Origin: Candidatus Aenigmatarchaeota archaeon
Lineage (GTDB): Archaea > Aenigmatarchaeota > Aenigmatarchaeia > PWEA01 > JACQIF01
Direction: 5' to 3'
Assembly: GCA_016432325.1 (NCBI GenBank)
Contig: CP066684.1
Coordinates: 160,001-224,000 of the forward strand
Length of the DNA stretch: 64,000 nt
In this document: piece by piece, positions 30,592 through 54,121 of the stretch
Layout of the letters: each line of letters opens with the position of its first letter
Position numbering within the stretch: the first letter of the stretch is position 1
Position numbers and translations under genes: made by a program
The notes under the pieces: model-generated
Seen by the model: only the letters and a program-made list of their open reading frames with translations
Databases searched by the model: none
Told to the model about the DNA's origin: nothing

Positions 30592-30700
30592 TGGAGCGGG
30601 GGTTGGGAATTGCACCCAAGTAGATCCGCTTTCCGGCATGTCGGAAAATCGCGTTTCCGCACGCCTGCAGGCGGACGCATAGCTGCTCTGCCACCCCCGC
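30592..30700 (-). tRNA. tRNA-Cys(GCA) with 34-nt intron at 37/38 (30631-30664); encoded CCA
   Basis: Acceptor GCGGGGG/CCCCCGC, U73, anticodon stem TCCGC/GCGGA, T stem TTGGG/CCCAA; 75 nt after intron removal. Confidence 0.92.
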
Positions 30701-30701
30701 G

Positions 30702-32177
30702 TCACTTGATGAAACGCCACCTCGGGCCTTCCGACGTATCTTGGACTTCAATTCCGTACTGGTCCAAGAGCCTCTTCCGCAGCTCGTCCGCGGCCGTGAA
30801 GTCCTTCTGCTTCCTCATCTCTTCCCTCTGTTCGATAAGCTTCTTAACCTCGGCGGGTAGAGGGCGTTCCTCTTTTCTGAGTACGGCAAGGACACTGTCA
30901 AAGTCGTGCATTGTGTCGAGTACTCGCTGCGCGTCGCGGGAAGCCATCGCCTTCGTTTCGAGCAGCTTGTTGATGGAACCCACGAAGTGATGCAGAGATG
31001 CCCACATCTCCGGCACGTTAAGGTCATCGTCCATCGTGCGCTCGAACTCTTTGCGCACCTCGGCGACCAGCTTGCGTACGGCTGTACTGCTCTTCCCGTT
31101 CTTGTGACGTGCGAGCCGATCCATGAACTCGTCGAGCTTGTCGAGCGTGTTCGCGGCGTTCTTCAGCGACTCCCAGCTGAAAAGCTGCTGCGTGCGATAG
31201 TGCGCGGTCAGGTAAAAAAACCTCAGCTGGCGCGGCGTGAACGTTTCGTCGATAACGCTCTGCAACCGCAGGAAGTTCCCTTTGGATTTTGCCATCTTCA
31301 AAGGCCGGGCCTTTGAAGTTTCCGACCAATTGTCGGAAATTTTTGTGTCGCTCACGTTCAGGAATTCGCAGTGGAACCAGTACTTGGCGAAAGGACGGCC
31401 TGTGGCCGCCTCGCTCTGCGCGATTTCATTCGTGTGGTGTACGGGTATGTGGTCTATGCCTCCGGCATGTACGTCGAGCGTGCGTCCCAGATACTTCATT
31501 GCCATCGCAGAGCACTCGATGTGCCAGCCGGGGAATCCTCGGCCCCAGGGCGAGTCCCATTCCATGTGGCGTAGCGTGCCCGCAGGAGTGAGTTTCCACA
31601 GCGCGAAGTCCGTGGCGTTGCGCTTGCCTGCCGTGACCTCGACGCGCGCGCCTGCCTTCAATCCTTCGATGTTCAGGCGCGCCAGCTTCCCGTAATCCTT
31701 GAGCCTGGACGTATCAAAGTAGACTCCATCGCGTATCTTGTATGTGTAACCCTTGCGTTCGAGAGTTCTGACGAGAGTAATCTGTTCACTTATGTGGTCT
31801 GTCGCGCGGCACCAGATGTCAGGCATGAGTGCGCCCAGAAGCTCCAAGTCGTTCTTGAAGACCTTCTCGTAAAACGCAGCAATATCCCAGGCGCTCTTAT
31901 GCTCGCGCTGCTCGGCGACTACCATCTTGTCCTCTCCCTGATCGGCGTCATCGGTCAGGTGCCCGACGTCCGTGACGTTCGTGACGTGCTTGACGCGGAA
32001 GCCCTTCCATAGCAAGTAGCGCTTCAGAAGGTCTTCGTTGACGTACGTTCGTAAATTCCCTATGTGCGCGTAGTCGTAGACCGTCGGACCGCACGTGTAC
32101 ATGCGCACGGTCTTCCCCTTCAACGGTTTGAAAATCTCTTTCTTGCGGGAGAGCGTGTTGTAAATCTTGAAAGCCAT
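30702..32177 (-). CDS. cysS: cysteine-tRNA ligase
   Basis: CGPTVY, HIGN, DFALWK, PGWHIECS, HHTNE, KMAKS. Confidence 0.96.
   Translation of the reverse strand: MAFKIYNTLSRKKEIFKPLKGKTVRMYTCGPTVYDYAHIGNLRTYVNEDLLKRYLLWKGFRVKHVTNVTDVGHLTDDADQGEDKMVVAEQREHKSAWDIAAFYEKVFKNDLELLGALMPDIWCRATDHISEQITLVRTLERKGYTYKIRDGVYFDTSRLKDYGKLARLNIEGLKAGARVEVTAGKRNATDFALWKLTPAGTLRHMEWDSPWGRGFPGWHIECSAMAMKYLGRTLDVHAGGIDHIPVHHTNEIAQSEAATGRPFAKYWFHCEFLNVSDTKISDNWSETSKARPLKMAKSKGNFLRLQSVIDETFTPRQLRFFYLTAHYRTQQLFSWESLKNAANTLDKLDEFMDRLARHKNGKSSTAVRKLVAEVRKEFERTMDDDLNVPEMWASLHHFVGSINKLLETKAMASRDAQRVLDTMHDFDSVLAVLRKEERPLPAEVKKLIEQREEMRKQKDFTAADELRKRLLDQYGIEVQDTSEGPRWRFIK
31296..31343 (-). repeat. 45-nt in-frame double-hairpin insertion within cysS
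   Basis: Stems TTTCCGAC/GTCGGAAA (31319-31339) and CTTCAAAGGC/GCCTTTGAAG (31296-31318); 15 extra codons before KMAKS. Confidence 0.75.
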
Positions 32178-32399
32178 GGCTACCCACCTCGTTGCGTTAA
32201 GAACCGAGATATGGGAGAGGCTAAATAAAAGGCGTTACTTTCCGGCGTGCGTGCAAAGGCCCTCACCGAGCATCTCCATCACGGGACTAGATGCGACGAG
32301 CGATTATTTAAACGCAGTCCTGACCGTTTAATCCTCGAATACAACCATTTCACCAAGCCCTCCAAAACGCATAAATAAGTGTCGGGCGCACCTTTTACG

Positions 32400-33104
32400 A
32401 TGGCCATGGTTCCCATAGAAGCGATTGTCACGGAGAAGACGCTTGTAACGCCGTACCTCGGGTTGTTCAAGATAGCGCCAGAAGGTGCTATTCCAAAGTT
32501 CGAGCCGGGCCAGTTCATGATGGTGGGCACGGACGTCGACGGCAAGTATCAGAAGCGCGCCTATTCTATCGTGTCGCCGCCGTACGCAATAGGACACGTC
32601 GAATTCTGCATAAAGGCCTACGAGGAAGGGAAGGTCGCGAAGCACTTGCTTGCGCTACCAAACGGCGCTCGCGTAAAACTCGAAGGCCCTTACGGCAAGT
32701 TCGTCCTGAACGGTTCGCCCAAGGACAAGCTCTTCATCGCGGCCGGCACAGGCATAGCCCCCGTTCTCTCAATGATAAAGACGCTCTTCCACAGGGGCTT
32801 TGGCGGACGCGTGCGTCTGTTCTACGGCGCAAGCTATCCGCACACTCTCGTTTACGCGGACGAGCTGCATGCGCACACGAAGAAGCACGATAACTTTACT
32901 TTTGTGCCGACGGTAAGCAGGGACGTCCAGGGTTGGGCAGGCGAAAAGGGTCGCGTAGAAACCGTATTGCCGAAACACATAAAAGACGCCGAGAACTTCG
33001 AGGCCTTCATCTGCGGACCTCCTCCGATGGTGCAGAATTCCGCAGCGTACCTGAAGTCAGTGGGCTTCGCCGACGCCGACGTGCACATGGAACAGTACTG
33101 GTAG
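32400..33104 (+). CDS. FNR-family FAD/NAD(P)-binding oxidoreductase
   Basis: PGQF, RAYSI, GPYG, AAGTGIAP, CGPPPM, EQYW. Confidence 0.9.
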   Translation: MAMVPIEAIVTEKTLVTPYLGLFKIAPEGAIPKFEPGQFMMVGTDVDGKYQKRAYSIVSPPYAIGHVEFCIKAYEEGKVAKHLLALPNGARVKLEGPYGKFVLNGSPKDKLFIAAGTGIAPVLSMIKTLFHRGFGGRVRLFYGASYPHTLVYADELHAHTKKHDNFTFVPTVSRDVQGWAGEKGRVETVLPKHIKDAENFEAFICGPPPMVQNSAAYLKSVGFADADVHMEQYW

Positions 33105-33815
33105 CTATGCCTTCGCGGGCTGTTTCATCGCATTCCGTATCCTTGCTTTCGTGTCATCTGTGCAACACGCGGCGAAAGCGTTGCGTTCTTCGGTAACAGA
33201 CGCGCCTGCGACGAGTCGCTTGATGTCGCGAACGGCAGGCGGCGCGCGTATCAAGGAGGAAGCCATCTTCGCCGCGCGCTCCATGGGATTCTGCACAACT
33301 TCGTCCACGAGGCCAAGCCACTGCGCCTCTTCTGCGTGCAGTAGGCTTCCCGATACGAGCAGTTTCTTGCCCTTGCTGCTGCCCAAGAGACCGGGGAGCC
33401 TTTTTGTAGTACCAAACGCCGTTGACAGACCGATCCTTACTTCAGGGAAGCCGAATATGGCCGTGTCCGCCGCGATGCGGAAGTCGCACGCCAGCGCGAG
33501 TTCAAGTCCCGGACCCAAAGAATATCCTGTAAGGACTGCGAGCGAAACCTTGTTCGAATTCTCCAGCAGAGAGCATACCTCCTGGCCTAAAGTCGAAATG
33601 TCATAGAAGCCCTGCTTGTCCGCATGGAACAGTTCGTCGGTATCGTATCCAAGAGAAAAGTTCTCCTTGGCCGCGAGCACGATTACGGAACCCTGCGCCT
33701 TGTTGAGGGCGTCTCGCAGTTCGATTAGCAGGCCTGCCGCGATTCTGTTGGAAGGCGATGCGAACGTTATTGTCGTAACTCCGTCGCTCTCAGAGACGAG
33801 AACGTTATCCCCCAT
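33105..33815 (-). CDS. enoyl-CoA hydratase/isomerase family protein
   Basis: FSLGYD, GLELALACD, FGFPEV. Confidence 0.88.
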   Translation of the reverse strand: MGDNVLVSESDGVTTITFASPSNRIAAGLLIELRDALNKAQGSVIVLAAKENFSLGYDTDELFHADKQGFYDISTLGQEVCSLLENSNKVSLAVLTGYSLGPGLELALACDFRIAADTAIFGFPEVRIGLSTAFGTTKRLPGLLGSSKGKKLLVSGSLLHAEEAQWLGLVDEVVQNPMERAAKMASSLIRAPPAVRDIKRLVAGASVTEERNAFAACCTDDTKARIRNAMKQPAKA

Positions 33816-33845
33816 ACGACGGTTTTGTGCGTTCTGGTATAAAAA

Positions 33846-34688
33846 TCATTCGCCGGCCAGTTTCCTCGCATACGCTATGTTCGCGGCGTGGTCGCGTTTA
33901 TCGTCTTCTGGCGTTTCGAGGATGAACGGAAGCTTGCGCAGCTTCTGATGCGTCAGCACGCCGCGCATGCCGTCGTGGCCTATTTTTCCCAAGCCGATGT
34001 GCTCGTGACGGTCCAGCTTCCCACCGAGCGGTCCTTTTGAGTCGTTCAGGTGTATCGCATGCAAACGATTCAGCCCGATGAGTTCGTCGAACGTTCCCAG
34101 CGTTTCATCAAGCCCTTTCTTCTCTGCGATATTGTAGCCTGCAGCGAACGTGTGGCACGTGTCCAGCAAGATGCCCGTACGCTTGAACTTCGTGTTGTTG
34201 AGTATGTACGCCAGATGCTCAAACTTGTAGCATGTCCACGAACCCATCCCGGCCGTGTTCTCAAGAAGCAAGCCAGCGTGCTTCGACGCGTCGGCGAGAG
34301 CGTCCAGCGCGCGCACGATGTTTTTCAGAGCGGCCTCCTCGCCTGCGCCGCCGTGCGAACCCGGATGCACGCACACCCAAGGAAGGCCCAGACGTTCGGC
34401 CGCTTCGAGCTCCTTCCTCATCATCGCGACAGACGCGTGCCAGAGCTTCGCGTCAGACGAACCGAGATTTACCAGATACGTCGCGTGGGAGATCATCGGA
34501 TATTTCAGAAGCGATTCGACGTTCTTCCTGTACGCGGCCGCGTCTGCGTCCGTGAACCGCGGCGAATCCCACATGCGGGGAGAGTGCGTGAATATCTGGC
34601 CGCAGTTGCCGCCTATATCCTGCTCGCGCTTGGGAGCCTCTGTTATAGAGCCGGCGATGCTCACGTGCGCGCCTATTGGTCGGCTCAT
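33846..34688 (-). CDS. nfo: endonuclease IV
   Basis: GAHVSIAG, HATYLVN, HPGS, ENTAG, DTCH, HLNDS, DRH, ETP. Confidence 0.95.
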   Translation of the reverse strand: MSRPIGAHVSIAGSITEAPKREQDIGGNCGQIFTHSPRMWDSPRFTDADAAAYRKNVESLLKYPMISHATYLVNLGSSDAKLWHASVAMMRKELEAAERLGLPWVCVHPGSHGGAGEEAALKNIVRALDALADASKHAGLLLENTAGMGSWTCYKFEHLAYILNNTKFKRTGILLDTCHTFAAGYNIAEKKGLDETLGTFDELIGLNRLHAIHLNDSKGPLGGKLDRHEHIGLGKIGHDGMRGVLTHQKLRKLPFILETPEDDKRDHAANIAYARKLAGE

Positions 34689-35914
34689 CGGGTAGCCTCC
34701 GGGCGTTTCTTCCCTTTGTCGGACTCTATTTTGAAGATTGCAAGGCTGGCGACAACGTTCGAGATGAATATGACAAGGAACGCCACCTGCAGGAAGACGT
34801 CCTCCCCGCCGAACGTAATTCCAAACGCGGCCGGGTACGCGGCCATCGCGGCCGCGGCAAGACCGTTGGGAAGCATGGCCGTTATGATTTTTCTGTCAGT
34901 GGCGACAGGCGCGAACCTCTCCAGAATCCCGGCAGAGCCATAACGGGCCGCCGCCTTGGAAGCTACTACGAGAAGAGCCATGGCGACGGTGGCGATTGTC
35001 AGCGTGGCTATCTCGAGTATGACGCCCATGAAGACGAAGAAGAAGGTGCGCACGAAGAACGTTATCTCCTCCTGCGCGACCTGCAGCTCCGGTTTTAAGA
35101 TTGCTCGTTCCCCTGTGCCCAACATTCCTTTGAAAAGATAGGAGTTGCCCAGCACGATGCCGAAGACGAGAGCGGCAAACGCGCCGTTGCTGCCCGCGCC
35201 CTCGGTGAAGACGTACAGCAACAGACCCGCGGCGAGAGTCAGGAGATAGTTGTACTTCTCCGTCTTTAGGATGTCCAACGTTTTCAGCCAGAGCGCGCCG
35301 GCGAGCAGCGCGAACAGCGACGATATCGTGAACGCTCCGAAGAAGTCCTGCGCCGCTTCGCTGATTGGCAAGGCGTCGCCTGTGGCTATGAGCTGCAGCA
35401 GAAAGATGGACGATATTATGGTCAGCGAGTCATTGATGGACGATTCAAGGCTCAGTATCGTCCGCGTCTCCTCCCCGATATTTATTCGTCGAACAAGAGA
35501 CATCACTACCGAAGAACTCGTTCCGCCGAGGATTGAACCGAGGAGCAAGCCGTGCAGAAGAGGCCAGCCGAACAGGACGGCCACGCCGGAAACCAGCAGG
35601 ACGCTGCCGACGAACGAGGCGAGCGCGAATAACGTCGCAGGAGCCGCTTCCTGAAGGACCTTCTTGTAGTAGAGGGACATGCCGCCCTCTATCAGCAGTA
35701 TTATCAGGACGAGCGTCCCGAAGAACGGCCCCAAAGCCTTCATGCCGGCCAGCGCGGTCGGACCAAATACGCCGAACACAGGGCCTATCATGAGGCCCAG
35801 CAGCATCAGGATGAGGATGTCCGGTATCTTGTACCGCTCGAAGATTTTAGAGGCGAGGAAACCGACGAATATTATCGCGGCTATGAGGGTAAGAGCCGTG
35901 TTGACGTCGACCAT
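34685..35914 (-). CDS. CPA1 (NhaP-type) cation/H+ antiporter
   Basis: LESSIND, FFFVFMG; about 12 TM. Confidence 0.88.
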   Translation of the reverse strand: MVDVNTALTLIAAIIFVGFLASKIFERYKIPDILILMLLGLMIGPVFGVFGPTALAGMKALGPFFGTLVLIILLIEGGMSLYYKKVLQEAAPATLFALASFVGSVLLVSGVAVLFGWPLLHGLLLGSILGGTSSSVVMSLVRRINIGEETRTILSLESSINDSLTIISSIFLLQLIATGDALPISEAAQDFFGAFTISSLFALLAGALWLKTLDILKTEKYNYLLTLAAGLLLYVFTEGAGSNGAFAALVFGIVLGNSYLFKGMLGTGERAILKPELQVAQEEITFFVRTFFFVFMGVILEIATLTIATVAMALLVVASKAAARYGSAGILERFAPVATDRKIITAMLPNGLAAAAMAAYPAAFGITFGGEDVFLQVAFLVIFISNVVASLAIFKIESDKGKKRPEATR

Positions 35915-35947
35915 GCCTTGTAGAAGGGGCCCATGCTATAAAAACGC

Positions 35948-36580: not shown

Positions 36581-36642
36581 TATAACACCGTTACATTGAA
36601 ATGTGCGGGAGACTATTTAAACCCTACGTCAGTAGACGTACC

Positions 36643-37916: not shown

Positions 37917-37977
37917 GGAGTGAATTGGGAACATTCCTTATTTAAGTCCTGCGCTTCGCATTACAGGCAGTGATTAA

Positions 37978-39213
37978 ATGCAAGATCGTGTCTTACAAAA
38001 GGCAGTTCGCATTCTCGAGCGTCCGGTCTGCGACCACTGTTTGGGACGCCAGTTCGCCCAGCTGCTGAGCGGGCGCACGAACGTCGAGCGCGGCCGCGCG
38101 ATCCGCGACGCCGTGGCGATGGCTCTGGATTCGGAAGAGAACCTGAAGGTCGACATGAGCAACTTCGCCGGATACAGGTTCCACCACAGCGAGCTGAAGA
38201 CTCCCGAAGCGCGCGTCGCGTGCTCTGCCTGCGCGGACGTTTTTGAAGACGTGGAGACGTATGTCAAAAAGGTCGCGCGCGTCCTGACGAAGCTGGATTT
38301 CAACACCTTTTTGGTTGGCACGCAGGTCAGCGAAGAGCTTATAGGCGCCGAGGAAGAGCTCTGGGAGCGCTCTGGAATAGAGTGGTGCGAACCCATCAAG
38401 GGCGAGCTCAACAGAGAAGTGGGTTCGCGCGTCGAGAAGGTCGTCAAAAAGAAGGTGGACTTCAAGAAACCCGACGTGCTCGTGCTCCTGAATCTCGCCA
38501 AGCGGCGCGTCAGCGTCGAGATAAACCCGCTGTGCATCTACGGCGAGTACAACAAACTGAAGCGCGGCATTCCGCAAACAAAATGGCCGTCGGGAAAATA
38601 CAAGATTTCAGTCGAACAGATTATCGCAAAGCCTTTCATGCGCGCTACAGGAGGGACTAACCACAAACTCCACGGCATGGGCCGCGAGGATATCGACGCG
38701 CGATGCCTCGGCTGGAGGCCGTTCATCCTGGAGATTCTAGAACCGAACAAGCGCAACGTGCGCGTCGCGCAGCTCCAGAAAGCCGCCAACAAGGACAAGC
38801 GCATTCGCGTCAGAAACATGGCTTTCATCGATTCGTCGGCGATAGAGCGCCTGAAGCGCGCGCAGCCCGACAAGAGCTATCGCGCGCTGGTCATACTGAA
38901 CAAAACAGTAGCGCCGGCCCGGCTGAAGAAGCTCGCCGTTCTGAACAACAAGGAAATCTACCAGGAGACGCCCACGCGCGTGATGCACAGGCGCGCAGAC
39001 AAGGTCCGCCGACGCGTGGTCAAGGAAGTCAAGTGGCGCCGTCTCGGCCCCAGAAAAATAGAGATACGTGTCCGCGCGCAGGCCGGCACGTACATCAAGG
39101 AACTGATTTCAGGGGACGGCGGGCGCACGTATCCGTCCGTTTCGGAGCTGCTCGGAGTGAAGGCGCGCGTCAAGGAGCTGGACGTTATAGAGATCCACGG
39201 GAAGAAGTTCTAG
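37978..39213 (+). CDS. pus10: tRNA pseudouridine(54/55) synthase
   Basis: CDHCLGR, PQTKW, HGMGREDID, QETPTRV, GTYIKE..GDGGRT.PS. Confidence 0.95.
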   Translation: MQDRVLQKAVRILERPVCDHCLGRQFAQLLSGRTNVERGRAIRDAVAMALDSEENLKVDMSNFAGYRFHHSELKTPEARVACSACADVFEDVETYVKKVARVLTKLDFNTFLVGTQVSEELIGAEEELWERSGIEWCEPIKGELNREVGSRVEKVVKKKVDFKKPDVLVLLNLAKRRVSVEINPLCIYGEYNKLKRGIPQTKWPSGKYKISVEQIIAKPFMRATGGTNHKLHGMGREDIDARCLGWRPFILEILEPNKRNVRVAQLQKAANKDKRIRVRNMAFIDSSAIERLKRAQPDKSYRALVILNKTVAPARLKKLAVLNNKEIYQETPTRVMHRRADKVRRRVVKEVKWRRLGPRKIEIRVRAQAGTYIKELISGDGGRTYPSVSELLGVKARVKELDVIEIHGKKF

Positions 39214-39246
39214 GCATCTAGCTTCCGCTATTCGTGGTTAACGTGC

Positions 39247-39387
39247 CTAGCCGCCTATCCTGTACATTCCTGTGCCGCAGACGGGGCAGACGCCCTTCGT
39301 GGCCTTCTTGCCGTTCTTCATCGTCACGGCCTTGGCGTCCTTCATTTCGCGCTTCTGCTTGCACTTTACGCAATACGCTTCTGTCAT
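39247..39387 (-). CDS. DUF5679-like zinc-ribbon microprotein, 46 aa
   Basis: MTEAYCVKCKQKREMKDAKAVTMKNGKKATKGVCPVCGTGMYRIGG; TATA upstream. Confidence 0.85.
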   Translation of the reverse strand: MTEAYCVKCKQKREMKDAKAVTMKNGKKATKGVCPVCGTGMYRIGG

Positions 39388-39496
39388 GGGAAGGGCTTCG
39401 CCGTGGCGGATATAAAGGCGTGAAAAACGACGCTTTTAAATACCTTTTAAATAGGCGACTGTCCATTAGCAAGGCCGTAGTAGGAGTGCTGACGTT

Positions 39497-44220: not shown

Positions 44221-44404
44221 GGGGCCATAGGATAACCCGGCAGTCCTGCCGGCTCCAGTTGGCGCAACTGGCGCGCTGAGTCTCCGGACGATGACAAGGA
44301 AGATACCGGCTAGTCCCGGTTCAAACCGGGCTTTCTTTAAAAAGAAAGCACGGGTGCAAAGAAACTCCGCTTTCCAGCACATGAGAATCCGGGTGGCCCC
44401 ACCA
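44221..44404 (+). tRNA. tRNA-Trp(CCA) with introns at 37/38 (44259-44304) and 59/60 (44326-44387)
   Basis: Acceptor GGGGCCA/TGGCCCC+ACCA, anticodon stem GCCGG/CCGGC, T stem CCCGG/CCGGG; 76 nt after removing 46+62 nt. Confidence 0.9.
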
Positions 44405-44471
44405 AAACGACGGGATATAGATATCTGCATGTTTTTGAACGCTTTTATTTTCTCACTGATCTGATTTAGAT

Positions 44472-44906
44472 ATGTATATTTTTGTGAGTTATTCAAAAGA
44501 AGGACTGAATTATGCTTCTATAGTAAAAAATAAACTAGCAGGAAAACAGCATATCACATTCCTATCTCATGATGAATCTTATGGAGGGTCTGAAGCATGG
44601 ACGCAAATTAGCGAAGCGTTGTACAATGCTAGGGTTGTTATATTCGTTGTGACAGAGAGTAGTCAAACATCCGATGGTCAAACGGCTGAATTCAATGCTA
44701 CAATGAATAACGCCAAACCCTACATTCCATTTATCAAGGACGGTATTGTGTTAAAACAGTTCTATATTATGACAGCTCGAAATCATATTAAATTCAATGA
44801 TTCCAACATTTCTGACAAAACGGACGAGCTTACTAGTTCTATAGAACGAATGAATATCTCCGAAGGCGATGCAATGGCAGTAAAACTTTCAAATGGTGAT
44901 AACTAA
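44472..44906 (+). CDS. TIR-domain protein
   Basis: IFVSYS, W..I.EAL..ARVVIFVVT..S..S....E (Glu73 at the usual catalytic position), YIPF. Confidence 0.85.
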   Translation: MYIFVSYSKEGLNYASIVKNKLAGKQHITFLSHDESYGGSEAWTQISEALYNARVVIFVVTESSQTSDGQTAEFNATMNNAKPYIPFIKDGIVLKQFYIMTARNHIKFNDSNISDKTDELTSSIERMNISEGDAMAVKLSNGDN

Positions 44907-45661
44907 TGGATTCTGTTGATGTTGGCAAGATAGAAACTTTTGTACATCAGATGTTGCAAGCGTACAATCACACTGCATTGTTGGATAGTATCGCCTCTGT
45001 CATAAGTTTTAATCCGGAAATACATGAGCAACTTGAATTGTCTCAAATAGGTAAGCGAACAGGTATACCGCGTAGATTCTTTTTTACTAATGACAACGTC
45101 GATAACAGTATGGTAGCAGCAGATTTTGCCCGTGCTATTGTTGCAGGAGAAAGAAACTTCTTTTTACACGAAATAGAAAAAAGCTCAGTTGTTGTTAATA
45201 TTTCAGGTTTCACCTACGAATCGATATTAAATGTAATGAGAACAATAGATAATCCAACGGATATGTTCATTCCCATAGAACCATTTTTTAACAACTTCTA
45301 CACGTGGAATAAACCCAACCATGAAAGAATACGTTTCGAATATATGAAAGAGCCAATACTACTAGCCGGTAATCAAGAAATAAGAGTACATTGGCTAACA
45401 ACAGACACTGGATTTACAGAGATTTTTATTACGAATCGCAAAGGTATTTCTTTGGCACGTAAGGAGTTCAAAGACGCCTCAACTCCGAAGGATTTTGATA
45501 TTATACCCGAGATGAATTATATCTCTCCTAAGGAGAAGTTGATGGTTTACTTCGGTAAGTCTAAGAAAACCGCAGATGACTTTGACCTAGTGATAAGAAC
45601 GATTGTCTCAAATCCCGTTGTTAATCCCAACGCCGCACTGAAAATAAGTGTTGATTCTTAA
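44906..45661 (+). CDS. hypothetical protein with HK97 capsid/encapsulin-like sequence pattern
   Basis: Spine-helix-like DFARAIVAGERNFFL, PTDMFIP, C-term FDLVIRTIVSNPVVNPNAALKISV; TAATG overlap with TIR gene; fold is inference. Confidence 0.55.
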   Translation: MDSVDVGKIETFVHQMLQAYNHTALLDSIASVISFNPEIHEQLELSQIGKRTGIPRRFFFTNDNVDNSMVAADFARAIVAGERNFFLHEIEKSSVVVNISGFTYESILNVMRTIDNPTDMFIPIEPFFNNFYTWNKPNHERIRFEYMKEPILLAGNQEIRVHWLTTDTGFTEIFITNRKGISLARKEFKDASTPKDFDIIPEMNYISPKEKLMVYFGKSKKTADDFDLVIRTIVSNPVVNPNAALKISVDS

Positions 45662-45784
45662 CATCTTCTTCCAATACCAAAGCTTACTCCTAGAGATCCC
45701 TAGTGCCCGCGCCTCTGAGGACAAATAAATACCTTACTCTAGGGTGGGGTAACCTTTATATATTCCAAAGTTCGTTTAACCGGT

Positions 45785-46171
45785 ATGAAGTTAGAGCTGA
45801 TCATACCGGAGATATACAAAAACTCGACTGAGATACATGAACTCCAACAACTGTCGGATGACGTCAAATCCAACAAAATTAAGGTGTCCGTTAAGATCGT
45901 GGATGTCCCCGAAGCGGAGACTATTAAAATGCAACGAATGATGACTCCATCCATTCTACATAAAATTGGGATTAAACAAACGCAGAAAACAAAGAACCTT
46001 TATCCTACCCTTCTCGTTTGTGACGACGATGGAAAAGTGATCACGTTCTATCCGCAGAAAAGAAGAGGACGAGATGGCGGCGAGATAAGCATCAAAGAAT
46101 TTCTTAGGAGCTTCGTTAAAGGTAGGATTGTTGCGTTGCATGAGAAAAATACGTTAGAATCGTTGATGTGA
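45785..46171 (+). CDS. hypothetical protein (possible thioredoxin-like fold)
   Basis: TATA CTTTATATA upstream; YPTLLV..DGKVITFYP. Confidence 0.6.
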   Translation: MKLELIIPEIYKNSTEIHELQQLSDDVKSNKIKVSVKIVDVPEAETIKMQRMMTPSILHKIGIKQTQKTKNLYPTLLVCDDDGKVITFYPQKRRGRDGGEISIKEFLRSFVKGRIVALHEKNTLESLM

Positions 46172-46172
46172 T

Positions 46173-46799
46173 ATGACTTGGAATTCCATAATTGAAGCTA
46201 CGGTTAGCGGGGTTGCCGCTGCGCTAATCTCTGCCATAATCATATTTGTAGCTAAAGCTACTCTGGGAAGAAAGTTAAAAGAAAGGTCAATTAAAACAGA
46301 GGTTCCCGACGTCTCTGGTTCTGTGTTAAACAATCCATTTTTAATATCTTTGTCCCTTACATCATTCGCTGTTGTACTAACCTTTTTTAGCATGGTCTAT
46401 TCGTGGCAAACTTTTAGTTATATTTATCTAACTGTTGCAGATTTTGTGCTTGGTATTGTAACTTATTGGATATACAATAACCAATGTCCGAACTGCAATA
46501 GAATTTTTACAAAGCGGTTACTTAACAAGGAAATATTGAAAGAAGAAAGAAGACCATATACATATAGAGATTATACGATTTATCTGTATGCAGATGGTTC
46601 CGAAAAAGACCGAAAATATCATGGCGCAGAAAAAACTAAAATGGAAACATGGAGAACCGAGAGAGAGTTTTATGAATGCTATGGGTGTACTCACGAATGG
46701 GAACGCTTATTCGAAAGAAACTTAGATCTCAGCAATAGGCCTAGACCGAATCTCATTAGAACTAAATACAATCAGCCAACCATCTTTGACAATTATTGA
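46173..46799 (+). CDS. membrane protein with C-terminal zinc ribbon
   Basis: 3 TM, then CPNC...CYGCTHEW. Confidence 0.7.
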   Translation: MTWNSIIEATVSGVAAALISAIIIFVAKATLGRKLKERSIKTEVPDVSGSVLNNPFLISLSLTSFAVVLTFFSMVYSWQTFSYIYLTVADFVLGIVTYWIYNNQCPNCNRIFTKRLLNKEILKEERRPYTYRDYTIYLYADGSEKDRKYHGAEKTKMETWRTEREFYECYGCTHEWERLFERNLDLSNRPRPNLIRTKYNQPTIFDNY

Positions 46800-46811
46800 G
46801 TTTCGGCAGTT

Positions 46812-47189
46812 TTATTTGAAAGGCAACTCCTTTACATTATTGCCGTAAACCATTCCATCATTATCAATAAACGTGGCATTGATTAATATCGTGGACCCCT
46901 TAAACTTTTTCAAGTTACTGCAGGGAAACACGCCATTGGGACTTTCCATTACATTCAACTCGCCAGAACAGACAATCACAGATTCGGAAGTGGCCTCGAC
47001 ATTAACTTTACATATGGGGGTTTGTGCAATCGCTGCTAGCGGGGGCGGTACTTTACTAAACCCCATTATCATTTTGTCTGAACAGGAAATGGCTATACCG
47101 GGCGTTGTGAATAAGATTGTGTATGAAATTCCCAATAAGGTCACCAGTGCAAATAGCACCACCAATCTCATTTCAGATTTTTTAGCCAT
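46812..47189 (-). CDS. hypothetical membrane-anchored protein
   Basis: AAGGAG RBS, N-terminal TM, four Cys. Confidence 0.6.
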   Translation of the reverse strand: MAKKSEMRLVVLFALVTLLGISYTILFTTPGIAISCSDKMIMGFSKVPPPLAAIAQTPICKVNVEATSESVIVCSGELNVMESPNGVFPCSNLKKFKGSTILINATFIDNDGMVYGNNVKELPFK

Positions 47190-47199
47190 AGTATCTCCT

Positions 47200-47517
47200 T
47201 TAGGTAAACGCTCCTAATATAAGAAATGTCCCGTACACGGATAAATTTAAAACAAACGCTAAAGCCGTGGATATTATACACACATCTAGCATTCTATAAT
47301 ATATGCTTAGAAGACTTTTACGATAAAGTCTTTTGCTATGGAGAATTATTTGGATGAAAATTAATAACATCCAAAGGAAAACTAAAACAAATAAACTTCC
47401 TCTGATTAGCCCGAATGAAAACAAATTCGAAGTGGCTGGCACGATTCCTAAAATTCCGATAAAAAGGCTTATCAATATGCCAAACCGTTCGGTCGGTTGT
47501 TTTTCAGCGTTGCTCAT
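47200..47517 (-). CDS. hypothetical 3-TM membrane protein
   Basis: Hydrophobic ORF; TATA-like TTTAAGTA upstream. Confidence 0.55.
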   Translation of the reverse strand: MSNAEKQPTERFGILISLFIGILGIVPATSNLFSFGLIRGSLFVLVFLWMLLIFIQIILHSKRLYRKSLLSIYYRMLDVCIISTALAFVLNLSVYGTFLILGAFT

Positions 47518-47626
47518 CTACTGATCACATATGACTAGGAATCTTATACTTAAAGAATTCAAAAACATGGAGATGTCTATATCCCCACCAATTTCCCAGC
47601 CCTCCATAGCCCCCGCTAAATCAATC

Positions 47627-47670
47627 AAAAATAAAGAAAAAGCTAGAGTCAACGCTGAGCGCAACTCTAG
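47627..47670 (-). terminator. hairpin plus U-tract terminator
   Basis: CTAGAGT/ACTCTAG stem overlapping the stop, followed by TTTTTCTTTATTTTT on the minus strand. Confidence 0.65.
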
Positions 47671-47831
47671 AAGCGCTGCCTGGGAACGAAGCACGCCTTG
47701 CAATAGACGGGCTTTCCTTCCGTTGGCTTGAAAGGCACTTCGCATTCCTGTCCGCATTTGCTGCAGACGGCCTTGTGCATTTCGCGTGGACCGCGGTCAA
47801 AGCCGCGTCCGCCACCAAAACTTCTTTCCAT
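47667..47831 (-). CDS. CxxC-x17-CxxC domain protein, 54 aa
   Basis: MERSFGGGRGFDRGPREMHKAVCSKCGQECEVPFKPTEGKPVYCKACFVPRQRF; AGGTGA RBS. Confidence 0.9.
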   Translation of the reverse strand: MERSFGGGRGFDRGPREMHKAVCSKCGQECEVPFKPTEGKPVYCKACFVPRQRF

Positions 47832-48028
47832 TTCATTTCACCTGTTTGTTTTTCTAGCGAATTAAGATCTCGAGAATTCGGAACGACACGCTCTTTCGAA
47901 ACGCTCTACTCCCACACTCTCTACTGTCTGACTTCGCTGCCCCAGATGGGGATACACACCTATTTAAGCTTCGTTTGAGGCTCTTTTGCAGGCTACTTTT
48001 AAGGGGGATGCGGCATGAAAAAGGTCTT

Positions 48029-48541: not shown

Positions 48542-48568
48542 TTTAATACAGGCTTGGTAAGGATTGCC

Positions 48569-49363: not shown

Positions 49364-50479
49364 CACGAGCAGCACGCTCAACAGCGACGCCAGATAGAAA
49401 CCGAACCCCAGCGTGTCAGCGGCCAGAGCGACTACAATCAGACAGGTCAGCTTGCCCATGTTCATGAGAGTCTCGCGGAAGAGCGTGTAGCCGACGACAT
49501 CGTTTTCCTTGGCGTGGCGAATGAAACTGCGGTATACGGGCAGGTCCGCGCCCAGGGCGACGATTCCCATCGCAAGCGATGCGGCGAGCACGAGGAACTC
49601 CGTTCGGGCGAGAGGCAGCAGGTAGTAGAATGCTGCGAGAGGCACCGCCGTTATTCTCAAGACCTTCGTCGTGCCTATTCTGTCGGTGATGCGGCCGAGA
49701 TAGTTGGAAAAGAATATGGAGCCGACTATCGCGAGGGAACCGGCCACTCCGACTCCGAAGAAATCGCCAAGGACGGCGAAGATGAAGACGGGCCACAGAA
49801 TCCCCTCAATCACCGCACGGAAACCGTCCACGAAGAAACGTATCGCGTAGCGCATGTTCTCTGTCGTTGCATACGAAGACCACGACACTATCTCCGGTTT
49901 TTTGACGTCCTTCGTCGCAAGCAAAGGCAGGGTGGAGAGAGCCACCAGCGTCAGCGCGGAAAGGAAGAGGGCCGGGAAGCCGTAGGTCGTCAGGATGAGT
50001 CCTCCGAGCAAAGGTCCGAATATGGCGGCCGCGCGCACCGCGCTGAAAAGCACGCCCGACTCGGCGCCTTCCTTTCTCTTGTCCGTGGACAGGGAAAAGT
50101 CCGTGTGCAGGCCCATCCAGTAGAGGGAGAGCGCAACGCCGCCCAAGGCCGCTATGACGGACGGGTTGACAGGACTGGTGTCGTAGACGTTCAGCAACAC
50201 GAGCTGCAGCATGAGGAACGGCGCGGAAGCGGCTATGGTGTGCTTGAGACCTATCACGGGCATCAGGCGGACAGTGATGAAGTTGGCGACCATCGACGTC
50301 AGGTACATGACGCCGTAGTATTGCAGCAGCATCAGGGGCAGCGGCATTCCCTTGCCGAGGAAATACAGAGGCACGAACACTCCGACCATGGAAAGCCCGA
50401 ACGAGCGCAAAAACATGTTGGCGAATATTTCGTTCAGCTCGATGTTGAAATGCCAGTACTTCCGTATGGGTTCGAACGT
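49358..50479 (-). CDS. MFS transporter (start ambiguous: ACG 50479 or ATG 50416)
   Basis: About 12 TM, GPLLGG, GRITDRIG motif A; frame open up to 50479 behind GGAGGTGA. Confidence 0.85.
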   Translation of the reverse strand, partial: TFEPIRKYWHFNIELNEIFANMFLRSFGLSMVGVFVPLYFLGKGMPLPLMLLQYYGVMYLTSMVANFITVRLMPVIGLKHTIAASAPFLMLQLVLLNVYDTSPVNPSVIAALGGVALSLYWMGLHTDFSLSTDKRKEGAESGVLFSAVRAAAIFGPLLGGLILTTYGFPALFLSALTLVALSTLPLLATKDVKKPEIVSWSSYATTENMRYAIRFFVDGFRAVIEGILWPVFIFAVLGDFFGVGVAGSLAIVGSIFFSNYLGRITDRIGTTKVLRITAVPLAAFYYLLPLARTEFLVLAASLAMGIVALGADLPVYRSFIRHAKENDVVGYTLFRETLMNMGKLTCLIVVALAADTLGFGFYLASLLSVLLVL

Positions 50480-50543
50480 TTACACGTCACCTCCTTCGAT
50501 TCGTCGCCTAACGTATATATTCTTCGCATAAAAACGTCTTGTC

Positions 50544-51101
50544 ATGGACGGCTGTGTGTTCTGCAAGATAGCCACGAAGGAGATAGCGTCAGAGATAATC
50601 TACGAAGACGACAAGACCCTCGCGTTTCTCGACATCAATCCGATTACTCCCGGCCATACCGTGGTGATTCCCAAGGGCCACGCCTCAAGCATCGTGGATA
50701 TGGACACCAAAGGAGTGCAGGCCGTTTTTACCGCGGTGAGAAACGTCGTGCAGCAGATACAGAAGGCCATGTCTCCTGTCGGTTTCAACTACGGCGTCAA
50801 CCAAGGGCGCGCGGCGGGGCAGGCCATAGACCACCTGCACGTTCACGTGCTGCCGCGCTTTGAGAACGACGGCGGCGGCTCGATACACATGATAGTGAGA
50901 AATCCTCCGCGCAAACAGACGGTCGAAGAGATAGGGGGCACGATACGCGCGGCCTCGGGGTTTGTCCAGAAAGACGAGCCCGCGGAGGAGGCGCCGGCGA
51001 AGAAAGAGGAGCCGAAGGAAGACCTGGAAAAGAAGATGAAAGCGCTTGAAGAAGAGATGTCCAAGCATATCGCGACTCTGAAGAGGATGAGGCGGCCTTA
51101 A
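50544..51101 (+). CDS. HIT family protein with C-terminal extension
   Basis: CVFCKI, FLDINP..GH, AGQ..HLHVH. Confidence 0.92.
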   Translation: MDGCVFCKIATKEIASEIIYEDDKTLAFLDINPITPGHTVVIPKGHASSIVDMDTKGVQAVFTAVRNVVQQIQKAMSPVGFNYGVNQGRAAGQAIDHLHVHVLPRFENDGGGSIHMIVRNPPRKQTVEEIGGTIRAASGFVQKDEPAEEAPAKKEEPKEDLEKKMKALEEEMSKHIATLKRMRRP

Positions 51102-51185
51102 AGCGAAGCTTCAGATCTCCCTGCTGGGAAGGATGCGAGGAGGTCGTAATCGTGTTTTTATTCTTGTGTCGCACACTCGAACCAA

Positions 51186-51466
51186 GCGGCGATAGTCTAG
51201 TGGTTTCCGCGGCAGCTTCATGGCGTACACCGCCCCGCGGAAATTGTAGGACCTTAGCCTTCCATGGCGCCTTTTTGAGCACGTCCGCTCAAAAACCCGC
51301 GGGAATGCACGGAACAAAGTTCCGGCACATCGGGAGCACACTCCCGAATAAAATCCGCTGGCGCACGATGAAAGCTAATGACCCGGGTTCGAACAAGTGG
51401 CACGTGCGCGCGCCCCTTGAACCCCTACGACGTAGGCGTTTCATGAAAATCCCGGTCGCCGCACCA
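51186..51466 (+). tRNA. tRNA-Gly(TCC) with three introns: 20/21 (51205-51247), 37/38 (51265-51372), 59/60 (51394-51449)
   Basis: Acceptor GCGGCGA/TCGCCGC+ACCA, D stem GTCT/GGAC, anticodon stem TTAGC/GCTAA, T stem CCGGG/CCCGG; 74 nt after removal. Confidence 0.88.
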
Positions 51467-51499
51467 ACGTTTATATCCACATAATCATCTCTTTATCGC

Positions 51500-52192
51500 A
51501 TGCCCATAGAACGATGTACGCTCGGAGTGTCCGGTCTTGACCAGTGCATCGAAGGCGGCCTTCTGAGGGGAAGTTCGAACCTTGTTGCCGGAGGGCCCGG
51601 TTCGGGAAAATCCATCCTGTGCATGCAGTTCCTGGTGGACGGCGCCGTGAAAGGGGAAAACGGGATGTACGTCTCTTTCGAGGAGGACGAGACGCAGATG
51701 GCGCAGAACTTCTCCCCTTTCGGATGGGAACTGGACAAGCTGGTGAAAGGCGGCAAGATAATGCTGAAGTATTTCTCTCCGGAGCACGTGGCGACTTACC
51801 TCAAGGCGCCTGTAGACCCCCTGCTGGACACGGTTCGCCAGTACAACGTCAAGAGAATCGTGATAGACTCGGCAAGCGGCTACGAGATACTCTTCGACAG
51901 CGACTACAGCCGCCGCGTCGGCCTCCTGAAGCTCCTCGAAAGCCTGAAAAAATACGGCGCGACCATACTGATAACTTCTGAGCGCGACCTGTCCACGGAG
52001 GCCCCCAACTTCATAGAGTTCCTGGTCAACGGAGCGATAGTGCTGTACAACACCCGGCAGGGCAGCCAGCGCGGCCGCGGAATCGAGGTGCTGAAGATGC
52101 GCGCCACGAACCACACGCAGAAGATAATGCCAATGAAGATAGACAAGAAGGGGATAACGGTCTACCCGGACGAGCTGTTCTTCCAGGCATAG
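51500..52192 (+). CDS. KaiC-like RecA-superfamily ATPase (single domain)
   Basis: G..GLD..EGG, GGPGSGKS, SFEE, IVIDS, VLKMR. Confidence 0.9.
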   Translation: MPIERCTLGVSGLDQCIEGGLLRGSSNLVAGGPGSGKSILCMQFLVDGAVKGENGMYVSFEEDETQMAQNFSPFGWELDKLVKGGKIMLKYFSPEHVATYLKAPVDPLLDTVRQYNVKRIVIDSASGYEILFDSDYSRRVGLLKLLESLKKYGATILITSERDLSTEAPNFIEFLVNGAIVLYNTRQGSQRGRGIEVLKMRATNHTQKIMPMKIDKKGITVYPDELFFQA

Positions 52193-52407
52193 TTCCTTGA
52201 CGTCAACCGTGTCAGAGGACAATCGATCGTTTCGGCAGAAAATGAGACCGGCGTTCTTCCAGAAAAACATCTTCGACTGTCGAACTTTATGGGGGTTCCT
52301 AGCCTGTTGACATAGAATTTTTGAGCGACTGTCGAAACATCTGCTCGACAATACGAATTCTTTATATATCAGCGCGTTGAAAAGAGAAGCGCAAGATTTT
52401 TCTTGCG

Positions 52408-52528
52408 ATGAAAGTTGTCGAGGACAGAATGAAACCTTCGGTTTTCAAACGTCCCCGCGGGAACGCCGTTGAGGGCAAAATGAAAACCCCGGTTTTCAAA
52501 AGTCCCTGCCATAAAATTGTCGAGGACA
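52408..52528 (+). repeat. 51-bp imperfect tandem repeat (about 2.3 copies), each unit a hairpin
   Basis: GAGG(A/G)CA at 52420, 52471 and 52522; cores TGAAACCTTCGGTTTTCA and TGAAAACCCCGGTTTTCA. Confidence 0.75.
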
Positions 52529-52536
52529 CGACAAAC

Positions 52537-52974
52537 ATGGACTCCGTTGACACGAGAGGAAAAATAATAGATCTGGAAGAGCTTCACAACCAGAATGAAG
52601 GAACTGTGACGCTTCATTTCACTCCCACGACTATCGAAAGCATAGACAAGGTCTTTCTGCTGGATTTCGTTTCTGAAAAGAGGCGCGCCTCGCTCTATCT
52701 GGAGGTCGTGAAGAACGAACCGTTCCTGTCTGTGCGCGCGGAGCACGGGGACTTCGTCGAATGGAAACAGAAGGTTGAATGGAAGAACAACCAGAAGGTC
52801 TTCATCGCAGTTTCCTGGGACATGAAAGAAGGCTACCTGAAGGTTTTTGTAGACGAGCAGCCGTTCAAGGCGATAAATTTGAAGTCTCTTGGCTTTGACA
52901 ACATCGGACAGAAGTTAGTCATCGGTTCGGACTACGAGAACCACTATCCGGGCAATTTCAATATTTCTATGTAG
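52537..52974 (+). CDS. hypothetical protein, possible concanavalin A/LamG-like fold
   Basis: EGTVTL, W...FIAVSWD....KVFVD, LVIGSD; frame also open from 52408 through the repeat. Confidence 0.6.
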   Translation: MDSVDTRGKIIDLEELHNQNEGTVTLHFTPTTIESIDKVFLLDFVSEKRRASLYLEVVKNEPFLSVRAEHGDFVEWKQKVEWKNNQKVFIAVSWDMKEGYLKVFVDEQPFKAINLKSLGFDNIGQKLVIGSDYENHYPGNFNISM

Positions 52975-53023
52975 ACAGCGTGTCCTGACTGCGTCTTATA
53001 AGCAACACGCGCGTACGTAACGC

Positions 53024-53347
53024 ATGATACCTCCGCGCTGGCGCCGCATCGCCCGCGAACGCGTCTCGATACTCGTGCGTCTGGCCAGGGAAGAGGCGCG
53101 CGCCCATCCGGAACGCTCCAAACGTTACATCGAACTGGCCATGAAGATAGCGGAAAAGTACAAGGTCCGCCTGCCCAAGAGCGCGAAGAGAAAGTTCTGC
53201 AAGCGCTGCCGCGCGTATTGGATCCCCGGCGTGAGCGTAAGCGTGCGCTTGAAGAGCAGAGAACGCATCATCGCGTACATTTGTGCGTCCTGCGGCTACG
53301 AAAAGAGGTATCCTTACGCCAAAAAGGCCCGGAAAGCGCCAAATTAA
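53024..53347 (+). CDS. rnp4: RNase P protein Rpp21
   Basis: IARER..L, RY, FCKRC...PG, CASCG..RYPY. Confidence 0.93.
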   Translation: MIPPRWRRIARERVSILVRLAREEARAHPERSKRYIELAMKIAEKYKVRLPKSAKRKFCKRCRAYWIPGVSVSVRLKSRERIIAYICASCGYEKRYPYAKKARKAPN

Positions 53348-53385
53348 AGCATATAAACCTGTGAGAGCGCTTTAGGACGGGTATT

Positions 53386-53802
53386 ATGATAACAGCACAC
53401 GAAGCAAATCCGCAGAGGCTCGTCGACGCCGCAAAAGAAGAGCTGAAGAACGTCGCAGCCGTCAAGCCTCCCGCGTGGTCAGCGTACGTGAAGACCGGCG
53501 TCTCGCGCGAACGGCCGCCGCAGCAAATAGACTGGTGGTACTCTCGCGCGGCGTCCGTATTGAGAAAAATATACATCGAAGGCCCTGTAGGCACGCAACG
53601 GCTCCGGAACGTGTACGGCGGTCGCAAGAACAGAGGGGCGCGTCCCGAACATTTTTACAAAGGCAGCGGTTCGTCGGTAAGAAAGATACTCCAGCAGCTC
53701 GAAACAGCCGGCCTCGTCAAGAAAGAAGGCACGAAGGGCCGCGTTGTTACGCCGCAAGGCAAGAAGATGTTGGACATGCTCGCCAAGAAACTGGTCGGGT
53801 GA
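53386..53802 (+). CDS. rps19e: 30S ribosomal protein S19e
   Basis: VKTG..ERPP..DWWY.RAAS.LRK, YGG, RKILQQLE. Confidence 0.96.
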   Translation: MITAHEANPQRLVDAAKEELKNVAAVKPPAWSAYVKTGVSRERPPQQIDWWYSRAASVLRKIYIEGPVGTQRLRNVYGGRKNRGARPEHFYKGSGSSVRKILQQLETAGLVKKEGTKGRVVTPQGKKMLDMLAKKLVG

Positions 53803-53806
53803 GCGC

Positions 53807-54064
53807 ATGGACACGAGCGTGCAGGCAGCGCAGCTGGAAAAGATGAAGAAGGAGATGCTGCGAACGGTCCTGACGAAAGAGGCGATGGAGCGTCTCGGCC
53901 GCGTGCGGCTCGCGAACGCGCTGCTCGCGTCGCAGCTGGAGCTGACGCTTGTGCAGATGGTCCAGACGGGTCAGGCCCGCGGACAGATAACGGACGAGCA
54001 GTTGAAGCACATCTTGGATTCGCTCGCGTCGAAGAAGAAGCCGACAAGAATAACGCGGAGATAA
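53807..54064 (+). CDS. PDCD5-like DNA-binding protein
   Basis: LTKEAMERL, ITDEQLK..L; synteny with rps19e. Confidence 0.9.
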   Translation: MDTSVQAAQLEKMKKEMLRTVLTKEAMERLGRVRLANALLASQLELTLVQMVQTGQARGQITDEQLKHILDSLASKKKPTRITRR

Positions 54065-54101
54065 TGGGGAACTCAACAGGAGCCCCGGAAGAAATTGGTG
54101 T

Positions 54102-54121
54102 CCTGAAACTGCGGTTTCAGG
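54102..54121 (+). repeat. dispersed palindrome TGAAACTGCGGTTTCA, copy 2
   Basis: CCTGAAAC-TGCG-GTTTCAGG in the spacer before rpl39e. Confidence 0.75.

Follow-up and report, generated by a model that had tools for sequence, protein, structure and literature searches.

Interrupted tRNA genes, shared introns and short palindromic elements in the genome of an Aenigmatarchaeota archaeon

A 64,000-nucleotide (nt) stretch of the genome of Candidatus Aenigmatarchaeota archaeon (contig CP066684.1, positions 160,001 to 224,000; hereafter the window) carries three tRNA genes, for Cys, Trp and Gly, that are interrupted by introns, together with a hairpin insert in the cysteinyl-tRNA synthetase gene cysS and hairpin inserts in the leaders of two further genes (Table 1). 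An original prediction, made from the sequence of the window, held that one class of small hairpin modules, with recurring GAAAC-N4-NTTTC cores, may populate tRNA introns, leaders and a coding sequence. Nine inserts were compared, consisting of the six tRNA introns, the cysS insert and the leader inserts at 18683 and 54066, and they are probably the product of two superimposed processes rather than of one module class, namely the copying of introns between tRNA genes and the spread of several families of palindromic micro-elements. The host genome (G000) is a single contig of 874,869 bp with a G+C content of 55.9%, and a genome of the same genus (G001), referred to below as the congener, was used for comparison. 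Positions are those of the window unless they are given as genome positions, which refer to the host genome.

Results

Three tRNA genes and their six splice junctions

In the unspliced window no tRNA was reported by ARAGORN or Rfam, and an Rfam search at E <= 10 across 28-58 kb of the window returned nothing relevant. An archaeal signal recognition particle RNA is present in the window. Removal of six segments gave clean ARAGORN cloverleaves for tRNA-Cys, tRNA-Trp and tRNA-Gly, each with its anticodon in place, which bears out the claim that all three genes are interrupted and that their introns number six. The junctions were tested for the bulge-helix-bulge (BHB) motif in a register with every splice site positioned behind the second base of a 3-nt bulge. 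In this register all six junction pairs had an outer helix of 4-6 bp, and the central helix was complete at two junctions and formed three of its four pairs at the other four. With inner helices of 0 to 7 bp the motifs are relaxed, and a strict scan, which required a 4/4 central helix together with both flanking helices, detected none where the true junctions lie. The same relaxed pairing occurred in only 0.18% of arbitrary junction pairs within the three genes. Because the outer helix is the tRNA's own stem, only the central helix counts as independent evidence for the motif. The six segments fit archaeal tRNA introns that are spliced by the endonuclease at relaxed BHB motifs, and their excision is predicted from the sequence.

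A single EndA gene was found in the genome, and its 201-aa product has an N-terminal and a catalytic domain (Table 1). No second EndA subunit was found in the genome with PF01974. Cleavage of non-canonical introns is known from enzymes of the (alpha-beta)2 or epsilon2 type (PMC5829648). The search may have overlooked a divergent partner subunit, or the 201-aa EndA may be unusually tolerant.

Across the whole genome, Rfam and ARAGORN recovered only about 12 tRNA genes. A search for acceptor stem, T-stem and CCA gave about 44 candidate tRNA genes, an approximate number, as the loose finder returned 227 mostly false candidates from which 44 were kept by hand curation. The median length of the candidates is about 215 nt, with 41 of them exceeding 100 nt, which indicates that multi-intron tRNA genes are the rule in the host genome.

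Table 1. Positions of the tRNA genes, introns, inserts and related features (window positions unless stated otherwise; fold z, folding relative to dinucleotide shuffles)
Feature	Position	Strand	Fold z	Remarks
Leader of HerA-like gene	18646..18745	+		F1 hairpin at 18689-18706 between two diverged copies of a leader cassette that carries a ribosome-binding site
tRNA-Cys(GCA) gene, one intron	30592..30700	-		ARAGORN match as intron-bearing; spliced cloverleaf 75 nt
Cys intron, 34 nt, at 37/38	30631..30664	-	-2.3	central helix 3/4, outer helix 6 bp
cysS double-hairpin insert, 45 nt (15 codons)	31296..31340	-	-5.8	just before KMSKS
tRNA-Trp(CCA) gene, two introns	44221..44404	+		spliced cloverleaf 76 nt
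Trp intron 1, 46 nt, at 37/38	44259..44304	+	-0.3	central helix 3/4, outer helix 5 bp
Trp intron 2, 62 nt, T-loop 59/60	44326..44387	+	about -3.0	central helix 4/4, outer helix 5 bp
tRNA-Gly(TCC) gene, three introns	51186..51466	+		spliced cloverleaf 74 nt
Gly intron 1, 43 nt, D-loop	51204..51246	+	-3.0	boundary ambiguous by 1 nt
Gly intron 2, 108 nt, at 37/38	51265..51372	+	-4.9	member of an intron family (see text)
F3 element nested in Gly intron 2	51310..51346	+		CGGAAC hairpin, GCACAT linker, CGGGAG hairpin; from doublet census
Gly intron 3, 56 nt, T-loop 59/60	51394..51449	+	-1.4	central helix 4/4, outer helix 5 bp
Leader insert, 85 nt	54066..54150	+	-1.7	upstream stop codon to start of small basic-protein gene; absent in the congener
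EndA, alpha-type subunit	L034:1474-2079 (genome ~849757-850362)			only EndA found

Whole introns are shared between tRNA genes

Clear relatives elsewhere in the genome were found for five of the nine inserts, and only short or pattern-level ones for the Cys intron and the cysS insert. Copies of Trp intron 2 with 91-100% identity lie in the tRNA genes at genome 25883, 545418, 629854, 740977 and 829729, so that this family is present in six tRNA genes with different acceptor stems, always at 59/60 after TTCAAA. Gly intron 3 represents a second 59/60 family, with copies at the same position in the tRNA genes at genome 258221, 290316 and 292773. For Gly intron 2 there is a match of 94 nt (91%) in the tRNA gene at genome 743370 and one of 69 nt (96%) in that at 830562, and shorter copies are present in the tRNA genes at 258221 and 292773; the family occupies the D-loop in these four genes and position 37/38 in tRNA-Gly. 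At an identity of at least 80%, sharing among tRNAs of different identity thus extends to six genes for Trp intron 2 and to three to five genes for Gly introns 2 and 3. Intron matches that span 44-94 nt at 91-100% identity reach E-values between 1e-10 and 1e-29, and every long match of these families lies within a tRNA gene. That a single family occupies two structural positions, and does so in tRNAs whose acceptor stems differ, points to the copying of introns and not to the duplication of whole genes.

Trp intron 1 is unique and weakly structured, with no relatives in the genome beyond chance 14-mers, and no paralogs of Gly intron 1 were found in the genome.

The excess of the proposed core is carried by a perfect palindrome

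Six of the nine inserts fold at z <= -2.3 relative to dinucleotide shuffles (Table 1; -3.1 for the leader insert at 18683), and Trp intron 1, Gly intron 3 and the 54066 insert are not below this value. When the leader-leader pair is excluded, the nine inserts have about as many words in common as shuffled sequences do (k=8: 7 vs 5.5, P 0.33), and the sharing of words between introns and non-intron inserts within the window is likewise not above shuffles (P 0.10-0.17). Judged within the window against the refuting condition that came with the original prediction, shared hairpin structure goes beyond the shuffled expectation, whereas a shared motif does not.

The string GAAAC-N5-TTTC occurs in the window at 18691, 30644, 38813, 44361, 54105 and 55257 (8 strand-counts vs 0.83 expected), and the sites at 38813 and 55257 are imperfect and lie within coding sequence. 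When the expectation for the whole genome was taken from a second-order Markov null, the perfect palindrome GAAAC-N4-GTTTC, termed F1, was found at 32 sites where about 2 are expected (64 strand-counts vs 4.5), which is a 14-fold enrichment, whereas the imperfect forms of the Cys and Trp intron type were found 8 times against about 9.6 expected. The excess of the core is thus carried by the perfect palindrome alone. The core is not kept in the rest of the Trp-intron-2 family. Of its five other members, three have CCTTCC as the 3' arm and two have different sequences there, and the GAAACTCCG half is also missing from two of the five; GAAAC...TTTC is therefore not a feature of this family. The cores that had been noted in the Cys intron, Trp intron 2 and the leaders are present as strings, but the forms in the two introns are no more frequent than chance predicts.

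F1 and its flanking repeats

The F1 core can be written GAAAC-NGCN-GTTTC, and 11 of the 32 sites read GAAAC-TGCG-GTTTC. None of the 32 sites lies within a tRNA gene; 24 are intergenic, and four are at most 100 nt from a tRNA gene. Beyond the core the arms are locus-specific yet complementary, and the left arm reappears downstream as a direct repeat. Exact direct repeats of at least 9 nt flank 10 of the 32 sites compared to 4% of controls, with most pairs 49-57 nt apart, and long flanking repeats (at least 19 of 32 nt) are found at 5 of the 32 sites compared to 1% of controls. All four F1 copies beside tRNA genes come with an exact 9-nt duplicate of the tRNA 3' end, which stops at CCA. Fold-back run-on synthesis, which predicts an inverted copy of the upstream flank after the anti-target, was considered as the source of these arrangements and rejected, as no such copy was seen by eye at the one site inspected (genome 395592).

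A similar layout with a different core was observed at two paralogous tRNA genes (genome 314620-314680 and 515900-515965). Each is followed by a GGAAAG...CTTTCC hairpin that has an inverted copy of the tRNA 3' end and a direct copy of 10 nt on its flanks.

Inserts in gene leaders

The 54066 insert contains an F1 hairpin (54102-54121), a TTTCC/GGAAA hairpin and a new GGTGA ribosome-binding site, and the start-codon word ATGGG(G)AAC is present on both of its flanks. Its F1 16-mer is common to position 18690 and about ten other sites. At the orthologous joint in the congener the upstream stop codon and the downstream start codon overlap and there is no insert, while in the host genome a decoy ATGGGGAAC stands at the joint and the real ATGGGAAC follows 85 nt on, behind the new GGTGA. 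The overlap in the congener indicates that the spacer and the ribosome-binding site are inserted DNA with a target duplication. In the leader of the HerA-like gene CGGTAAATGC occurs twice, 57 nt apart. A related hairpin is present at the orthologous leader of the congener (for that at 18691), and the neighbouring hairpins and the triplicated flank word differ between the two genomes.

The cassettes in this leader are also found elsewhere. A leader cassette of the form TTTAC-YGCTCAGA...AAGAGGGAC..GTAAATG, which bears a ribosome-binding site and has arms with compensatory changes, precedes at least six genes (window 18651-18745; genome 421873, 488100-488164, 802634-802700, 104184-104243, 843544-843600 and 108677-108740), and it is tandemly triplicated at genome 488100.

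The F3 twin-hairpin element and the Cys intron

A second element, F3, has the layout GTGYA-[CG...hairpin...CG]-RCATGY-[CG...hairpin...CG]-TRCAC, with fixed linkers and covarying stems, and is present in about 24 copies. Seven of the copies listed in the census are within tRNA introns and the others lie between genes, at gene junctions or in called open reading frames (ORFs); an eighth intronic copy, in the tRNA gene at genome 743370, is absent from the census list. The members of the Gly-intron-2 family at genome 258221 and 292773 are without the F3 doublet, which indicates that F3 is nested in Gly intron 2.

The Cys intron shares exact 14-nt matches with the F3 copies at genome 467558, 516017, 607704 and 851760. 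Its anatomy, GTG-CGGAAA-loop-TTTCCG-ACATGC-CGGAA, can be read as half of an F3 twin-hairpin element, and the intron may be little more than one F3-type element.

Among 151 genomes of the class, the F3 half-unit pattern was found as true hairpins 16 times in the host genome, twice in the congener and five times in a genome of a distant genus (G045). The half-units in the latter, which belongs to a different family of the same class, have the form CATGCCG-hairpin-CGTGCAC and lie at C7:15509, C25:15401, C29:5885, C45:2291 and C46:19506. No F3-type half-unit was found in the 20 other sampled genomes of the host's order besides the congener, and the distribution is thus patchy.

An in-frame hairpin insert in cysS

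The cysS insert is in frame and is missing from eight orthologs, and by this comparison it is lineage-specific. Its removal as an mRNA intron was considered and rejected, as there is no BHB that would excise it; the insert is therefore probably translated. A single sibling of hairpin 2 of the insert, identical in its 9+9-nt arms, lies at genome 582366 and is directly followed by an F3-type hairpin. Hairpin 1 has only TTTCCGACA in common with the Cys intron, a word with 13 occurrences in the genome where 5.5 are expected.

The nearest named homologs of the protein encoded by cysS (30702-32177) are from Elusimicrobia, Patescibacteria and a Bathyarchaeota metagenome-assembled genome, with 45-50% identity, which hints that the gene was horizontally acquired or evolves fast. 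Perfect 8-bp hairpins are also present in called coding sequences at 1286, 21029, 27660 and 55533, and these may be further in-frame hairpin inserts.

Turnover of inserts between the two genomes

The orthologous tRNA-Gly and tRNA-Trp genes of the congener have kept their exons and all five intron positions, with different modules inside the introns. Gly intron 1, which in the host genome forms a 9-bp stem TTTCCGCGG/CCGCGGAAA, has a homologous intron at the same place in the congener with compensatory changes in the stem. The congener's Gly 59/60 intron belongs to the Trp-intron-2 family, and introns therefore exchange families. This intron holds a nested F3 doublet that carries the F1 14-mer, and from its sequence it provides the best evidence that F1-type and F3-type hairpins may be related. 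Together with the presence and absence of the cysS and 54066 inserts, the turnover of introns supports the general part of the original prediction, namely the insertion of short hairpin units at places that tolerate them, whether introns, leaders or, in frame, a coding sequence.

Search for a mobilising enzyme

The prediction had also stated that no mobilising enzyme is visible in the window. This holds, and it extends to the whole genome for the families searched. The best PF01797 match, which would indicate a Y1 or RAYT transposase, had an E-value of 0.15 (11.6 bits) and was below the cut-off; no match for TnpA or TnpB exceeded the cut-off in the genome (PF01797, PF07282), and no match at E <= 0.1 was found in the genome for a reverse transcriptase, DDE_Tnp_1 or Cas1. 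A Cas1-like ruler mechanism for the long duplications was rejected because the genome has no Cas1. The elements do not qualify as miniature inverted-repeat transposable elements, given direct repeats of 9-27 nt and no match for PF01609, a result that covers this one DDE family as the others were not searched.

Two tyrosine-recombinase genes (genome 289344-289823 and 783238-783720), in open frames of about 395 aa, are each separated by about 500 nt from a tRNA gene with several introns (290316-290443 and 784209-784450). More likely, these genes encode integrases of integrated, perhaps tRNA-targeting, elements. An island of 3.5 kb with about 40% G+C (44405-47900; genome 56%) begins directly 3' of tRNA-Trp and contains a TIR-domain gene (44472-44906) and five ORFs without a Pfam match. 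Neither an integrase or other recognisable recombinase, nor an att repeat, nor a repeat of the tRNA end was found in this island.

Discussion

Two superimposed processes as the probable explanation

The account that we favour, and consider probable, is that intron copying and the spread of several palindromic micro-element families are superimposed in this genome. Whole introns with relaxed BHB junctions would be copied among tRNA genes, mostly reaching the same structural position, as in the two families at 59/60, and sometimes a new one, as in the Gly-intron-2 family. Several gene-less short palindromic families, namely F3, F1 and a small twin-hairpin family that would include the cysS insert, would spread as DNA. 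The anatomy, the family memberships, the target duplications and the presence and absence of inserts between genomes are observed, and the direction of the events, mobility as DNA and the action of an enzyme are inferred. F1 would typically come to be flanked by a copy of its landing sequence and often by an inverted copy as well, and fold-back priming from the hairpin is one possible source of the latter. Elements would survive only where they are harmless. In introns the splicing endonuclease would cut out everything from one junction to the other; at leaders and tRNA trailers the gene end would stay intact thanks to the duplicated target, and the insert could supply a ribosome-binding site; survival in frame would be rare and would need a tolerant protein loop. 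The introns would grow and turn over through the nesting of palindromic elements within them.

Several observations speak against this account. The direct repeats of F1 vary from 9 to 27 nt while their spacing stays at 49-57 nt, near 53, and variable length at constant spacing is not explained by a simple staggered-cut model. An F1 leader subfamily at five gene starts, which has its own ribosome-binding site, shows compensatory changes between the arm and the start-codon region, and these could reflect selection for an RNA fold. The proposed family links of the Cys intron and the cysS insert are drawn from short matches, and Trp intron 1 and Gly intron 1 belong to no family in the genome. No mobilising enzyme was found in the whole genome among the families searched (Y1/RAYT, TnpB, reverse transcriptase, DDE_Tnp_1 and Cas1). 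The sole close relative, the congener, has only about 65-79% DNA identity to the host and offers no high-identity pair of empty and filled sites, so that insertion and deletion are indistinguishable at most sites.

Alternative explanations

A more far-reaching possibility, which we regard as rather doubtful, is that the hairpins are selfish elements with no known transposase that integrate by an undescribed route in which the target is copied both directly and inverted around a fixed hairpin. Integration into a tRNA loop capable of forming a relaxed BHB would then create a new intron, and the Cys intron, read as an F3 half-element, would be an example.

The hairpins might instead be functional RNA or DNA signals under selection, acting as translational switches, as signals for tRNA processing or termination, or as aids to intron folding. 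The location of F1 at gene starts and directly after tRNA 3' ends would suit such roles, and the arrangement of decoy target, hairpin, anti-target and real target could work as a switch. Compensatory arms at five leaders (among them ATTTAC/GTAAAT, ACTTAC/GTAAGT and ATCTAC/GTAGAT) and the retention of the 18691 hairpin in the congener also agree with selection. However, the same types of element are found in frame in coding sequence and nested in each other, the 54066 insert is absent in the congener, the distribution is patchy across the class, and no Rfam family is matched. Locus-specific arms at a dozen unrelated genes would need a generating mechanism in any case, and we consider this explanation unlikely.

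The proposal of a single hairpin-module class, with a GAAAC-N4-NTTTC core and one machinery, that fills the six introns, the leaders and the cysS insert appears decidedly unlikely. The F1 14-mer is indeed found inside F3-type hairpins, both at genome 649175 and in the T-loop intron of the congener's tRNA-Gly; many enriched stems have an ...AAC/GTT... apex (TGAAAC, TCGAAC, CGGAAC, TATAAC); and F1 and F3 lie side by side in one 18-nt direct repeat at genome 467541. A class defined by the core is nevertheless not upheld, because imperfect cores are at chance level across the genome, including the Cys and Trp intron forms, the Trp-intron-2 family does not conserve the core, and F1 itself lies in no tRNA gene of this genome (0/32). 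Nor do introns and other inserts share words beyond shuffles within the window; the long intron families are confined to tRNA genes, and neither for Trp intron 1 nor for Gly intron 1 was a relative found in the genome.

That the similarities are due to chance or composition, and the introns are ordinary unrelated BHB introns, is very improbable as a general explanation. It does hold for the GAAAC...TTTC strings, both those of the Cys and Trp introns and those at 38813 and 55257, and for word sharing within the window, and Trp intron 1 and Gly intron 1 are unique. For Trp intron 2, for Gly introns 2 and 3 and for F1 and F3, however, it is refuted by the E-values of the intron matches, the 14-fold enrichment of F1, the fixed linkers of F3 and the 9-nt copies of tRNA ends at four of four sites.

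Relation to known systems

The transposition of introns among tRNA genes has been described for Thermoproteales (Sugahara 2008 and Fujishima 2010, both as summarised by PMC4090602 and by bioRxiv 10.64898/2026.10.13.758758). As far as these accounts extend, the two cases are alike in having related introns in different tRNA genes and positions, relaxed BHB motifs, removal by the endonuclease and several introns per gene. Unlike the Thermoproteales, the host here is a DPANN-type archaeon with a genome of 0.87 Mb. We know of no description in Thermoproteales of tRNA introns that hold palindromic elements also found outside tRNA genes.

Among palindromic elements, REP, BIME and REPIN sequences of bacteria are mobilised by RAYT transposases of the Y1 HUH type. 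The elements described here resemble them as short gene-less palindromes that are often doublets, have tens of copies and are mostly intergenic. They differ in having an archaeal host without a Y1 or RAYT match, in that F3 and F1 are also found in introns and coding sequence, and in that the two hairpins of the F3 doublet are not inverted copies of each other. Rickettsia palindromic elements are reportedly inserted in frame in essential genes as well as in non-coding DNA, with no known transposase (Ogata et al. 2000), and the MJRE palindromic repeats of Methanocaldococcus jannaschii are likewise said to be inserted in protein genes and non-coding DNA (Suyama et al. 2005). The cysS insert, with its 15 in-frame codons absent from eight orthologs, is a functional analog of the Rickettsia elements only. 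No sequence relation to either group is claimed, and the elements here are about 45 nt long, compared to about 100-150 nt, and are concentrated in tRNA introns. The double-hairpin elements of fungal mitochondria and the GC clusters of yeast mitochondria are twin-hairpin mobile micro-elements without an enzyme that occupy intergenic DNA, introns and genes; the present elements differ from them in residing on an archaeal chromosome and in their linker words.

Eukaryotic introner-like introns are derived from transposons and are non-autonomous repeats that persist through host splicing (PMC11282704). Splicing is spliceosomal in that case and is performed by a protein endonuclease in archaea, and the elements here are mostly inside pre-existing introns. 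The creation of a new intron in the manner of an introner is suggested for the Cys intron only. No description of palindromic micro-elements that build archaeal tRNA introns was found in the literature searched, although such a search is not proof that none exists.

Implications

Standard tools recover about 12 of about 44 tRNA genes in this genome, and genomes of this kind would look tRNA-poor unless multi-intron genes are modelled. Both processes are seen side by side in one genome, with introns copied to introns and palindromes common to introns and intergenic DNA, and this makes the idea of selfish DNA sheltered by a splicing enzyme testable. If hairpin elements do become introns, they would provide a visible DNA source for archaeal tRNA introns.

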